Assembly (NCBI GenBank): GCA_964397665.1
Contig: CAYNJW010000002.1
Span: 12,525-48,590, forward strand
Source: Candidatus Woesearchaeota archaeon
GTDB taxonomy: Archaea > Nanobdellota > Nanobdellia > Pacearchaeales > GW2011-AR1
Length of the DNA stretch: 36,066 nucleotides
Direction of reading: 5' to 3'
Shown: one piece after another, positions 32,173 to 36,066 of the stretch
Layout of the letters: every line of letters starts with the position of its first letter
Numbering within the stretch: the first letter of the stretch is position 1
Notes under the pieces: model-generated
The model's input: only the letters and a program-made list of their open reading frames with translations
What the model was told of the DNA's origin: nothing
Databases searched by the model: none
Translations under genes and position numbers: made by a program

Positions 32173-35100
32173 TCAAATAAGTTCAACATAAAATAAAGCT
32201 TTGTCTGAATCTGAAGAATTATAGTTTCTTAATGCTGCAGGAACTTTAATCTCATAATCGTATTTTCCAAATTTCCCTTGTAAATCATTACTTATCTTTG
32301 AAATGAAAACCAAATCTTCTGAAGAATCAAACTCTTCATCTTGAGAATCTGAAGAATCCCACAGAATTCCAGTTATGAAATTACTATTATTTGTGGAATT
32401 AATAATTGGTACATCTTCTACTACCTTTGAAAAGGTTGTAAAATTCGCTTTATCTTTTGCGAATCCCCCAAAAGTATAAGTATTCTTAACAGAATCCTCA
32501 AAATTCTCCATGCCTAATAAATTATCTATCTCTTCAAAATCTGAATTACTTTGTGAATTGTCTTTTTTCTTCCCAATAGCTTGTAAGTTTAACCAATCAA
32601 CTGAAGCTTCATAATCTGTAACATACAAATTTCCACCCTTAAAATTATCTGCTAACCAAGTAAGAACTTTATTTGCGCCACTATCTTTTAAAGCAAATTC
32701 CGAAGATGAAGAAATATCTCCATATAAAATATACCATGCACCTACAGAAATATTCCTTGAAGCAAAATTATTTGTTTCGTTTGTTTCATTTAAATCGCCT
32801 ACAGAATTAATTGGTGGATCTATCAAAACATAAATTTCTGAAGTACCCATCTCTGCCTGCCAAATGACAGAAGTATTTGTTGAATTGAATCTTGAGATAT
32901 TTAATAAAATATCTTGGCCAATCTGGATACCTCCAGAAGAAGGATTTCCATCATAAAACTGAACTTTAATATTTTTAGAATCTGAACCCTCATTATTAAA
33001 AATTTCAGCAGAAATCAAAACCATTTCTTTTTCCTTAGGATTTGATTGATTAAAGCTAATAAGTGACACATTTATAAAAAAATCCGGGAGAGTTAAATTA
33101 AACCATCTTTGTTCAGAGATATTTGAATTTCCAACCCTATCCCTGCAAGTAACACTCCAATAATGATATCCTTGTCCTATTATATTACTAAAAACTTGCT
33201 CAGTGTTTAAAATTCCAGATGTAACCAAAAGATTATCTTTTCTCTTAATTCCATCTATATTCAAGTCACATCTAAGAAGACTATCTAGAATATCTGAGGC
33301 ATTCCAACTGAAAGAAACTCTTCGCTCATTAAAATCTATTGCAGAATCATTAATCAACTGAACAAGTGTTATTTTTGGAGGGGTTTTATCAATATAAAAA
33401 TTTCTAAAAGAAGAATTACCAAAAACATCATTTAAATCATAACAACCAACAGACCAGTTATGTTCTCCTTCAGAAATACTTGTTAAACTAAAATTATTTT
33501 CTTGACCATTTCCAACAGCATTATCTGATCCATTAATAACTCCATCTAAATAAATACTACAATTTTTTATTCCAATAGCATCATAAGGTTTATATGTCAA
33601 ATTAATCTGAGAAAGATTCGTCCTAAACTCTGTATTCGGTGAAATTAACTCAATAGTTGGCGGAGCAATAACTGTAAAATTTTGAGCCAAACTTAAATTA
33701 GAATTATTTGCCAAATCAAAACATTCAATATCCCAAGAATGATTCCCGTCATTTACTAACAAAAAAATCTCTTCATTAGAATTATTTAAAACATCTAAAC
33801 TTGATTCAACTTCACCGTCAATACTAAGATTACATGAAACTATTGGAGAAAGATTATCTAAAACAGAAAAATTAAAGCTAACATTATTTGTGTTTACAAC
33901 CTCTGAATCTAAGGGTGAAAAAATTTCTAAACTTGGATTTTGATTATCCACATATACTGTCCAAACTTCTGAACTTCCAACAAGACCTGTAACATCAGTA
34001 ACATTAATCTTCCAGTTATATTCTCCATTAGGAAAATTTACACTAAAATTATTGTAATTAAAATTATTTAACTTTGAAGAATTTGTTTGATTTAAAACAG
34101 AATTAATAATTAAAGAAGCATTTGTAAATCCTTGATCATCTTCAATATAATATGTGAAATTAAAATTTCCTTGTCCCATCCAAGTATTATTTTCTGGGCT
34201 TATTAAAGAAACAACAGGATTTGAAAATTTTGTAAAATTATAAACTAAACTAGCTCCAAGATTATTTGATGAATCTGAACAGTTTACCTGCCATTTTTTA
34301 AAACCATCTGAAATTCCTGAAATGTTCCTTGTCATGATAGTATTATTCAAAGCATAAAAAGAATCCACAATAACATCATCAATAGACAAATTACAAGACA
34401 AATTACTATCTACTGAATCTATGACTGTAAAATTAAAACTAACATTGCTTTCATAAATATCTTCACCGTTTGGTTCAAAAAGGGTTATGTCTGGTGCGCC
34501 ACCATCAATCTTAAAAAATCTTTCTTCACTAATTGTCTTTCCAATAAAATAATCTGAACAATTCACATACCAACTATAATCTCCATCTAACAAGCCAAAA
34601 AGACTAAAATTATTTTCTTGATTATTTAAAATATTTGACTGATTAAACATTTTAAAATTATTATTTAAATAAAGACTACAATAACTCAAACCAACATTAT
34701 CTGAAGGAATATAAGTTAAATTAATAGCTGTTATTTGATATGAAGATTCATTCTCAGTCACCAAACTAATTTCTGGATTTTCACTAAGATTAAATTCAAA
34801 AGTGTCACTTAATCCTTCTCTTGCAGAATCATCAGAACAAGTTAGCTTCCATTGTTTTGCTCCGTCAGTTAAATTTTCTTCGAGTCTTGAACTGAAAGTC
34901 CCATTAGAAACAGAAAATGAATCATCAATAACGACACCATTTAATGTAAGACTACAAATTAACTCAGAATCTAATGAATCCATAACTGTAAAATTAAAAT
35001 ACACATCTGAAAAATTTACCAAAGAATTATTTATTGGAGAAACTAAATTAATTTCAGGCTCATTCAAATCTACACTGAAATTCCTCACCGTATCTTCAAA

Positions 35101-36066
35101 ATAATTTTCACTAAGATCATAACATCCAACTGTCCAATTATAAACACCTTCATCTAAACCAGTCTTTACAAAAGAATTCTCAGTATTATTTAAAATTGCT
35201 GTTTGATTATGCTCTTCAAGAACACTATTAAAAATCAAACTACAATTCAAAAAACCAGAATTATCTACTGGAGTATACCTTAAAGTAATATTCTCATTAG
35301 AAGTTATAAAATTTGTTTGTGGAAAATTCAAAGAGACTTTTGGAGGAGTGTCCAAAATCCTAAACTGAAAACTTTGGCTTGCACCAACTCTTCCAGAGTT
35401 ATCCTTACAAGACACATTCCAGTTATGTAATCCATTTGAAAGTTTTCCAGTTGAAAGATTAATTGAAGAACTATTCTCTACAAAAATCGTATCTCCAAGT
35501 TTATTACTATCTAACAAAATATCACAAGATAAATTAGTATCTAAATTATCTCTTGCTTCAAAATTAAGGATAACTTCATTTGAGGTAAAATTAGTATTAT
35601 TTTCAGGTAAAAACAGATTTACTTCTGGATTTTCTAAATCAATATAAAATTTTCTTTCCACATCTTTATTAGAATTTCCAAGATAATCAAAAACTTCTAT
35701 AGTCCAATTATACTCTCCATTTGAAAAATTAATTGAAAAATTATTTTCTCCTCCATTTAAAATAGTGGTTGTAGAAATGTTCTTTAGACCATTAATAATT
35801 AAAGTCGCATTCTTTATATCATCATTTGCATCTGTAGCATTATAACTTAAATTAAATAAGGAATAATTAAACCACTTGTTTGTTTCAGGACTTAACAAAG
35901 TAACTACAGGATCTACTCCTGTTTGAACTTGTAGAATTTCTGAAGCTTCTGAAAACATAGTTCTTAAGCTTGTATTAGCTAAAAAAACATAATCTCCAAA
36001 CGAACTAGGAGCTAAGAAAGTATAATTATATTTTCCAGATGAATCTGTAACAACTGCTGAATAATT
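32173..36066 (-). CDS. Giant secreted adhesin-like protein (more than 1297 aa, N-terminus beyond window): tandem Ig-like modules + CARDB + C-terminal domain shared with the small secreted proteins
   Basis: The track starts at Met 35958. I translated 35959..36066 in frame and found no stop (..NYSAVVTDSSGKYNYTFLAPSSFGDYVFLANTSLRT-M..), so the gene continues upstream of the window. It is very rich in N-x-S/T sequons, with 14 in the first 202 aa of the track ORF by my count. Confidence 0.8.
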   Translation of the reverse strand, partial: NYSAVVTDSSGKYNYTFLAPSSFGDYVFLANTSLRTMFSEASEILQVQTGVDPVVTLLSPETNKWFNYSLFNLSYNATDANDDIKNATLIINGLKNISTTTILNGGENNFSINFSNGEYNWTIEVFDYLGNSNKDVERKFYIDLENPEVNLFLPENNTNFTSNEVILNFEARDNLDTNLSCDILLDSNKLGDTIFVENSSSINLSTGKLSNGLHNWNVSCKDNSGRVGASQSFQFRILDTPPKVSLNFPQTNFITSNENITLRYTPVDNSGFLNCSLIFNSVLEEHNQTAILNNTENSFVKTGLDEGVYNWTVGCYDLSENYFEDTVRNFSVDLNEPEINLVSPINNSLVNFSDVYFNFTVMDSLDSELICSLTLNGVVIDDSFSVSNGTFSSRLEENLTDGAKQWKLTCSDDSAREGLSDTFEFNLSENPEISLVTENESSYQITAINLTYIPSDNVGLSYCSLYLNNNFKMFNQSNILNNQENNFSLFGLLDGDYSWYVNCSDYFIGKTISEERFFKIDGGAPDITLFEPNGEDIYESNVSFNFTVIDSVDSNLSCNLSIDDVIVDSFYALNNTIMTRNISGISDGFKKWQVNCSDSSNNLGASLVYNFTKFSNPVVSLISPENNTWMGQGNFNFTYYIEDDQGFTNASLIINSVLNQTNSSKLNNFNYNNFSVNFPNGEYNWKINVTDVTGLVGSSEVWTVYVDNQNPSLEIFSPLDSEVVNTNNVSFNFSVLDNLSPIVSCNLSIDGEVESSLDVLNNSNEEIFLLVNDGNHSWDIECFDLANNSNLSLAQNFTVIAPPTIELISPNTEFRTNLSQINLTYKPYDAIGIKNCSIYLDGVINGSDNAVGNGQENNFSLTSISEGEHNWSVGCYDLNDVFGNSSFRNFYIDKTPPKITLVQLINDSAIDFNERRVSFSWNASDILDSLLRCDLNIDGIKRKDNLLVTSGILNTEQVFSNIIGQGYHYWSVTCRDRVGNSNISEQRWFNLTLPDFFINVSLISFNQSNPKEKEMVLISAEIFNNEGSDSKNIKVQFYDGNPSSGGIQIGQDILLNISRFNSTNTSVIWQAEMGTSEIYVLIDPPINSVGDLNETNETNNFASRNISVGAWYILYGDISSSSEFALKDSGANKVLTWLADNFKGGNLYVTDYEASVDWLNLQAIGKKKDNSQSNSDFEEIDNLLGMENFEDSVKNTYTFGGFAKDKANFTTFSKVVEDVPIINSTNNSNFITGILWDSSDSQDEEFDSSEDLVFISKISNDLQGKFGKYDYEIKVPAALRNYNSSDSDKALFYVELI
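32176..32742 (-). other. C-terminal ~189 aa domain of the giant protein, homologous to 29916..30662 and 30758..31459
   Basis: WYILYGDISSSSEFALKDSGANKVLTW, YDYEIKVPAAL and the terminal LFYVELI align with the two small paralogs. Confidence 0.6.
32743..33087 (-). other. CARDB-like domain of the giant protein
   Basis: EMVLISAEIFNNEGSDSKNIKVQFYDGNP...VIWQAEMGTSEIYVLIDPPINSVGDLNETNETNN has the typical CARDB ending (E-x-N-E-x-NN). Confidence 0.6.
33088..35919 (-). repeat. Ten tandem ~92-99 aa Ig-like modules alternating between two types (A/B x5) at protein level
   Basis: - Type A: ..SP.NN.W....N.TY...D..G..N.SL..N........L.N..NNFS.....GEYNW.V.C.D.
- Type B: P.I.L..P.......NVSFNF.V.D..DS.L.C.L..D.......G.H.W.V.C.D..
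- Boundaries were counted residue by residue (aa 14-957 of the track ORF). Confidence 0.65.

Follow-up and report, generated by a model that had tools for sequence, protein, structure and literature searches.

A stretch of 36,066 nucleotides from a Candidatus Woesearchaeota metagenome-assembled genome (MAG) was analysed (contig CAYNJW010000002.1, positions 12,525 to 48,590; G000:C2:12525-48590, hereafter the window); scaffold gaps of 100 N flank both of its ends. A minus-strand open reading frame (ORF) at one end of the window (32173..36066) is part of a single gene of about 3,170 codons that spans the adjoining gap (C2:44697-53793, minus strand). Our preferred reading, to which we give a probability of about 0.6, is that this one gene encodes a glycosylated adhesin with a variable lectin-like head, a fixed stalk of ten immunoglobulin (Ig)-like modules of two alternating subtypes, (AB)5, and a conserved C-terminal docking domain. 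The (AB)5 array, a CARDB domain and the C-terminal domain recur with the same length and order in many proteins of Woesearchaeota and Pacearchaeota.

Extent of the gene across the scaffold gap

The part of the protein encoded in the window (P0001) comprises 1,297 residues, and residue numbers 1-1297 given below refer to it. Its frame stays open up to the window edge, where the N run begins (C2:48591-48690, 100 N). On the far side a second open frame of 1,701 residues (P0002, start MEFFQIIKTKGFLFFLFFLFFLSFFFVSATS) runs into the gap on the same strand. P0002 begins with a Sec-type signal-peptide-like N-terminus (MEFFQIIKTKGFLFFLFFLFFLSFFFVSA/TS, the slash marking the site), in which the hydrophobic segment is closed by a small-x-small site (VSA/TS), as read from the sequence, and it contains two Laminin_G_3 (LamG) stretches (139.8 bits).

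The two halves were joined by colinearity with homologues. A single ORF in another Candidatus Woesearchaeota genome of the same family as the source genome (P0004, on G018:C36, locus L027) is a syntenic homologue, 43% identical to and colinear with P0001 over residues 1-1296, and the downstream helix-turn-helix (HTH) and small-protein genes are shared. Residues 1368-1701 of P0002 align to P0004 183-517 and residues 1-1296 of P0001 to P0004 691-1986, again in colinear order; from the spacing of these alignments on P0004, about 173 residues are lost in the gap. They fall inside a DNRLRE domain (NF033679, P0004 455-624, E 6e-19). P0088 and other gap-free relatives can be aligned to the N-terminus of P0002 as well as to the array, at equal spacing. 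Colinearity with single ORFs elsewhere rules out that the halves are separate genes or were wrongly scaffolded. The ATG at 35958 is internal and not the gene start, and the joined halves place LamG/concanavalin-like domains in a secreted protein that exceeds 1,000 residues.

A first-pass annotation of the window, made from its letters, had proposed that the gene runs past the window edge, and P0004 and P0088 bear this out, the frame being resumed beyond the 100-N gap. It had also named an in-frame stop or assembly break just upstream as a finding that would refute it; the break is there, in the form of the gap, and the gene nonetheless resumes on the other side. The first residues of P0001 (1-51; 35914..36066, minus strand) are the end of a short pre-array domain and not an A or B module. 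They are colinear with P0004 691-740, where a weak CarboxypepD_reg hint was obtained.

In the N-terminal half, outside the window, a LamG unit is tandemly duplicated at about 1,200 nt (L003:1886-2094 and 3086-3294; G000:C2 about 50576-50784 and 51776-51984). A stretch of 209 nt is 100% identical between the copies and another of 118 nt is 94% identical, at spacings of 1200 and 1191 nt. The cause would be a recent duplication, a gene conversion or an artefact of the assembly.

The ten-module array

Residues 52-992 are made up of ten adjoining modules of 93-99 residues, without linkers and in strict A, B order, a head-to-tail tandem of units of about 90-100 residues as in Ig-like arrays. Every one of the ten scores 91-110 bits with the module hidden Markov model (HMM). 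All lie on the minus strand: A1 (residues 52-144, 35635..35913), B1 (145-238, 35353..35634), A2 (239-334, 35065..35352), B2 (335-428, 34783..35064), A3 (429-521, 34504..34782), B3 (522-614, 34225..34503), A4 (615-707, 33946..34224), B4 (708-800, 33667..33945), A5 (801-893, 33388..33666) and B5 (894-992, 33091..33387). Identities are 30-44% between A modules, 26-40% between B modules and 16-28% between A and B. Support for the split between the two subtypes was 100/98 when the tree included two homologues and 100 when it covered 290 modules of the family. The profiles of A and B are themselves homologous (hhalign 99.4%, E 4.6e-21), and the Cys residues occupy the same columns in both.

Scans of P0001 with Pfam gave Big_7 (PF17957, 55 bits, cut-off 24.1) and Big_13 (PF19077, 52.6 bits, cut-off 27), and both families also match the homologues P0003 (described below) and P0004. 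Profile comparison with the PDB gave, besides the matches considered under orientation, a marginal one to 9kvu, a 'bacterial immunoglobulin domain B1'. With secretion and two Ig-like families above cut-off, the earlier description of a giant adhesin-like Ig-module protein is upheld. Modules, identities and trees likewise agree with its ten alternating A and B modules.

A Cys pair is present in every B module (LSC...VSC in B1) and in A2, A3 and A5, and A1 and A4 are Cys-less, as had been noted at the outset. The same positions were scored in 29 family proteins (290 modules). Two Cys were found in 29/29 for B1, B2, A3, B3, B4, A5 and B5 and in 20/29 for A2, which is Cys-less in the other 9/29; A1 is Cys-less in 23 of the 29 and A4 in 24. 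Modules contain 0 or 2 Cys, never 1, in a position-specific manner. Since the Cys are lost in pairs, this is good evolutionary evidence for a disulfide, which would lie within the domain, inside the Ig-like sandwich. A1 and A4 are the most similar pair in the array (44% identity) and A2 and A5 share W-x-V-G-C-Y-D-L, both as first reported.

At the DNA level, likeness between modules is confined to patches of about 41 nt at 66-73% identity, with spacings of 285 and about 558-564 nt. The array is therefore old, and a recent repeat expansion or an assembly collapse is ruled out by the same values. Dissimilar neighbouring domains limit misfolding, a general principle of multidomain proteins; the alternation of two diverged subtypes, which keeps adjacent domains below about 30% identity, may thus lessen misfolding between neighbours.

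The C-terminal domains and the family that carries them

The array is followed by a CARDB domain (residues 993-1105; 32752..33090, minus strand; PF07705, 26.7 bits, cut-off 22.7). Its AlphaFold2 (AF2) model had a predicted local distance difference test score (pLDDT) of 91, and Foldseek aligned it to 3idu and 2kl6 with template modelling (TM) scores of 0.78-0.84, in agreement with the HMM match. The remainder of the protein (residues 1106-1297; 32176..32751, minus strand), ending in ...ALFYVELI before the stop codon at 32173-32175, is an unannotated C-terminal domain that had no match in Pfam, NCBIfam or the PDB sequences. Modelled in isolation by AF2, it gave a pLDDT of 91.7 and a predicted TM score of 0.88. 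Foldseek returned nothing significant for this model (best E 0.38 in the PDB and 0.12 in BFVD; TM 0.22 or less over the top 50 hits listed from either database), and no solved thread, TasA-like or pilin structure was among the hits listed. A two-domain model gave CARDB and generic beta-sandwich matches only.

Residues 1101-1297 were searched against 1.84 billion representatives, which yielded 757 clusters at E<=1e-3, 707 of them at E<=1e-10. In all 150 proteins listed, from fragments of about 150 aa to a protein of 6,414 aa, the match stops no more than about 10 residues short of the C-terminus. The C-terminal domain is also homologous to the small secreted proteins of two neighbouring genes: its profile aligns with theirs end to end (hhalign 89.3%, E 2.1e-6, 167 columns).

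The module architectures of the top 150 matches were classified with the A and B HMMs. Twenty-nine distinct proteins (30 rows, the window's protein being present twice) end exactly in ABABABABAB and a tail of 296-312 aa, which is the CARDB domain and the C-terminal domain of about 190 aa; a few family proteins end in (AB)6 or otherwise. A and B alternate in 88% of the 651 adjacent module pairs of the family. P0004 has exactly ten strong modules, of which A1 and A4 are likewise Cys-less. The array is thus an ancient fixed-length unit and not a growing repeat. Further modules had been expected upstream of the window edge, and this expectation failed: P0004 and 27 further proteins have exactly ten, with other domains before the array, and in the 1,701 residues of P0002 the module HMM found only one weak relative (residues 905-998, 12 bits). 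These results rule out additional A/B modules upstream.

The N-terminal parts vary as much as the C-terminal parts are constant. In the 29 (AB)5 proteins they range from none (in N-terminally cut fragments) to about 4,000 aa, and across the family they are swapped between LamG, Gly_rich_2, DUF2341 and others, with an invariant C-terminal cassette. A second giant member from G018 (P0003, G018:C50; L016:3-7415, minus strand) has the same A/B array from A1 to A5 and is cut by the contig end just after the start of B5; its N-terminal part is wholly different and carries a pair of Gly_rich_2 (PF21722) domains together with additional A-type modules. P0003 thereby shows head swapping on the same stalk. 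Two proteins with this C-terminal cassette are encoded in the source genome and at least three in G018, with different heads. Public records call the family members nothing more specific than 'hypothetical protein' or 'DUF2341 domain-containing protein [Nanobdellota archaeon]'.

The second such protein of the source genome is a short paralogue of 637 aa (G000:C16:9646-11556, plus strand), which consists of a signal peptide, an N-terminal domain, two Ig-like modules, the CARDB domain and the C-terminal domain.

N-glycosylation sequons

P0001 contains 81 N-x-S/T sequons in 1,297 residues (6.2 per 100 aa), 14 of them in the first 202 residues after the internal Met. Shuffles of the same composition gave 30.6 ± 4.8, so that the observed count is 2.65 times the expectation (z=10.4), and none of 2,000 shuffles reached 81. 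For the 455 ORFs of the genome that reach 150 aa, the median ratio of observed to expected sequons was 0.96 and the highest density elsewhere was 5.2 per 100 aa; P0001 ranks first in density in the genome. In reversed form, S/T-x-N, the motif was counted 30 times in P0001 (a forward to reverse ratio of 2.7), and the corresponding ratio was 1.11 in a crude set of cytoplasmic ORFs and 1.39 in a crude set of secreted ORFs. Across the family there are about seven sequons per module, and the preferred columns are filled in 50-77% of modules. The sequon excess is real, directional and conserved, and the shuffle and reversed-motif controls rule out Asn composition as its cause. The density remarked on in the first-pass annotation, from the same 14 sites in 202 residues, therefore survives the composition, cytoplasmic-ORF and reversed-motif controls.

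Origin of the array

The first-pass annotation had further suggested a duplication of a six-module block, in which A1 B1 A2 B2 A3 B3 was copied to A4 B4 A5 B5 and so on, making A1/A4, B1/B4, A2/A5 and B2/B5 paralogous pairs. The A modules gave partial agreement. Clades of A1 with A4 (76/71) and of A2 with A5 (91/91) were obtained in a module tree of three proteins, A1 and A4 fell in one cluster of the 290-module tree, with the Cys-bearing A2 as sister to A5 (83), and A1-A4 had the highest profile-profile score (210). The scores of A2 with A4 (196) and with A1 (190) were however both above that of A2 with A5 (185), and B1/B4 and B2/B5 were not nearest to each other by identity, profile score or trees. 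The pairing proposed for the A modules is thus seen in trees, as the module-tree check called for, and the B modules carry no such signal.

All 15 constrained position topologies were tested for A and for B, on about 95 columns, which are too few to decide. The predicted topologies, ((A1,A4),A3,(A2,A5)) and ((B1,B4),B3,(B2,B5)), were both left standing by approximately unbiased (AU) tests (p-AU 0.29 for A and 0.18 for B), as were all others over the 15 B topologies, and constraining B2 and B5 together gave a better likelihood than a quick free search. By resampling of estimated log-likelihoods (RELL), however, the predicted B topology received 0.025, below the random expectation of 1/15, and the predicted A topology 0.08, the best being ((A1,A2),A4,(A3,A5)).

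Modules group by Cys state: those without Cys make up 54 of the 65 in the A1/A4 cluster and 2 of the 52 in the A2/A5 cluster. The A1/A4 cluster takes in 11 of the 29 A2 modules, and A1, A4 and Cys-less A2 intermix across proteins. Identity between A1 and A4 is 43% within a protein and 38% between proteins, and that between orthologous A1 modules is 41%. One protein from a public metagenome (P0014, 3,489 aa) has an A1 and an A4 that are 88% identical, against a typical 30-55%, a clear case of recent intragenic copying or conversion of a module inside an otherwise ancient array. Because such homogenisation occurs, similarity need not record the original duplication. We read the likeness of A1 and A4 as that of a mostly Cys-less A subtype at positions 1, 4 and sometimes 2, occasionally homogenised within a gene, and the record of the original duplication as blurred where modules at positions 1, 2 and 4 have replaced or converted one another. 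A block duplication is accordingly possible, undemonstrated and, in our judgement, doubtful.

Neighbouring genes and the four-gene cassette

The giant gene is followed in the window by a winged HTH regulator convergent with it (31621..32172, plus strand; Pfam HTH_IclR and MarR matches) and by three genes for secreted proteins on the minus strand. The first, of 233 aa (30758..31459), has a mature part homologous to the giant C-terminal domain, and the second, of 248 aa (29916..30662), is a paralogue of the first (BLASTP E 9e-28). The third, of 329 aa (28881..29870), is the last and most conserved gene of the cassette; it matched no Pfam or NCBIfam family above cut-off.

Related loci were collected with a 4-sequence alignment; 39 were found, from Woesearchaeota, Pacearchaeota and Nanoarchaeota MAGs. 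In these, most of the giant genes are followed, on the same strand, by two genes of the small family, and in 13 the small pair is in turn followed immediately by a gene for a homologue of the 329-aa protein (phmmer E 1e-77 to 1e-92). A conserved four-gene cassette is thus formed by the giant protein, small paralogues 1 and 2 and the 329-aa protein. Five other loci (L021, L027, L032, L035 and L043) have the winged HTH gene in this position, with the giant gene on one side and the small pair on the other; most other cassettes lack it. A literature search found general papers on DPANN surface proteins and nothing on this cassette.

Further members are encoded elsewhere in the source genome. These are a second pair of small-family genes (G000:C25:2-2019, minus strand), a 797-aa ORF on C19 whose N-terminal part weakly matches the small family, and a paralogue of the 329-aa protein on C16 (5189-6412), about 3.2 kb upstream of the gene for the 637-aa short protein.

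Upstream, 3 nt from the start of the giant gene, lies a gene for a 391-aa polytopic membrane protein (L003:5107-6282, minus strand; G000:C2:53797-54972). It contains an HELGH (HExxH) motif and matched no Pfam family, and a homologue likewise precedes the giant gene in L022 and in L024 (E 9e-59 and 1e-48). A membrane metalloprotease associated with the cassette is a possible identity for it.

Function and orientation

In the preferred reading the order from N- to C-terminus would be signal peptide, head (two LamG domains and DNRLRE), short domain, (AB)5 rod, CARDB and the C-terminal domain of about 190 residues. The rod would be roughly 35-45 nm long and heavily N-glycosylated by AglB. The C-terminal domain would dock the giant protein into an envelope structure formed by its small paralogues, possibly with the 329-aa protein, and the variable lectin-like head would point outward and bind glycans on a host or partner cell. 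A conserved anchor with a variable ligand-binding head is the usual pattern of adhesins.

Several points weigh against this reading. About 173 residues of the giant gene are masked by the N run and their letters are not readable. A search of the source MAG, which is 84% complete, for AglB/STT3 gave no match; 25 of 31 relatives, the same genus included, encode the enzyme in a single ORF of about 900 aa, and its absence here is probably due to incompleteness. The best PDB matches of the module profiles, to the Ig-like BIg domains of SiiE (2yn3/2yn5), are marginal (E 0.01-0.035), and pairwise BLAST of the C-terminal domain with the small neighbours is colinear and weak (E 0.05-6). The proposed docking role rests on neighbour homology and the logic of conservation. 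Finally, the predicted N-terminal hydrophobic segment could reverse the topology if it were an uncleaved anchor.

Under this last arrangement the protein would be held by an N-terminal signal anchor and the C-terminal domain would be a distal tip, binding the small secreted paralogues or a host ligand. The giant protein indeed has no C-terminal transmembrane segment or PGF-CTERM-like tail, ending in ...ALFYVELI, and it does have a long hydrophobic stretch at the N-terminus. That stretch closes with the typical small-x-small site (VSA/TS) however, and an invariant C-terminal cassette with swapped N-terminal parts is the usual conserved-anchor/variable-head pattern; we hold the reversed topology to be unlikely. 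That the protein is instead a structural envelope protein of the S-layer type, the cassette encoding the wall itself, is very improbable: a four-gene secreted-protein cassette kept in many Woesearchaeota and Pacearchaeota and a very high sequon content like that of archaeal S-layer glycoproteins would fit it, but several genomes have two or more cassette proteins bearing different heads, and highly variable lectin-like N-terminal regions fit interchangeable adhesins better than the protomer of a lattice.

Beyond the adhesin reading, the four-gene cassette may encode an undescribed surface assembly of Woesearchaeota and Pacearchaeota, in which the small proteins, sharing a fold that has no counterpart in the PDB, polymerise or form a lattice, interchangeable lectin-like heads plug in through the glycosylated (AB)5 rod, CARDB and docking domain, and the ten-module length serves as a molecular ruler for host contact. 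This proposal is possible and is put forward tentatively.

Relation to known systems

The homology of a terminal domain to small stand-alone subunits of the same locus recalls the chaperone-usher tip adhesins FimH and PapG, by analogy only; in such a comparison it suggests incorporation into a subunit assembly. The present case differs in that the C-terminal model has no pilin or other PDB fold match and in that the organism is archaeal. General ORF scans of the window found no chaperone or usher genes, and the locus does not qualify as a pilin-type system.

The source genome (617 kb, 84% complete, 28% G+C) is that of a DPANN archaeon, and the window itself encodes the archaeal marker diphthamide synthase. 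DPANN such as Woesearchaeota are abundant, mostly uncultured and thought to be attached to other cells, by means that are largely unexplained. LamG-rich surface proteins have been proposed as mediators of DPANN-host contact (PMC5498576; PMC10266531). The giant surface proteins of Mia14 (PMC5498576) and of nanohaloarchaea (PMC10266531) resemble the present one in the tiny-genome host, the very large secreted protein, LamG, CARDB and tandem Ig-like domains. Unlike it, they were described without an (AB)5 alternating stalk, a C-terminal domain of about 190 aa or a four-gene cassette. The nanohaloarchaeal SPEARE giants have 8,880-9,409 aa and a VirB4/TraG-like ATPase domain, and were originally read as carrying protease and nuclease (PMC10266531). 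Pfam and NCBIfam scans of either half of the present protein found no ATPase, protease or nuclease family; without a VirB4/TraG-like ATPase domain, and at about 3,170 aa against the more than 5,000 aa of the SPEARE type, it falls outside that type.

Giant Ig/LamG adhesins are thus already known in DPANN, and no new principle is involved; the value of the present family lies in the fixed (AB)5 adaptor, the unannotated docking domain and the cassette. It is a lineage-wide family of giant proteins built on a standard adaptor, namely an Ig rod of ten alternating modules, CARDB and a C-terminal domain that lacks annotation and is common to small neighbours. Uses of the adaptor could include building family models, designing antibodies or tags for enrichment cultures and guiding multimer modelling of the attachment apparatus. 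The stalk is also a clean example of a heterotypic, length-conserved tandem repeat from which disulfides were lost in a position-specific manner.

Among bacterial adhesins, Salmonella SiiE (2yn3/2yn5) is likewise a rod of head-to-tail Ig-like domains of about 90-100 aa. SiiE is secreted by a type I system and binds Ca2+. The features found here in comparison are the strict alternation of two subtypes, a Cys pair in most modules, the richness in sequons and the archaeal host. Rods of alternating or super-repeated domains, with dissimilar neighbours and block duplication, are also known from the G5-E repeats of SasG/Aap and the A-band super-repeats of titin. As in those proteins, two domain types alternate here and adjacent domains are dissimilar. 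The present protein is unrelated to those in sequence and differs in that its two alternating types, A and B, are homologous subtypes of Ig-like module, in an array whose length is fixed at ten throughout a protein family.

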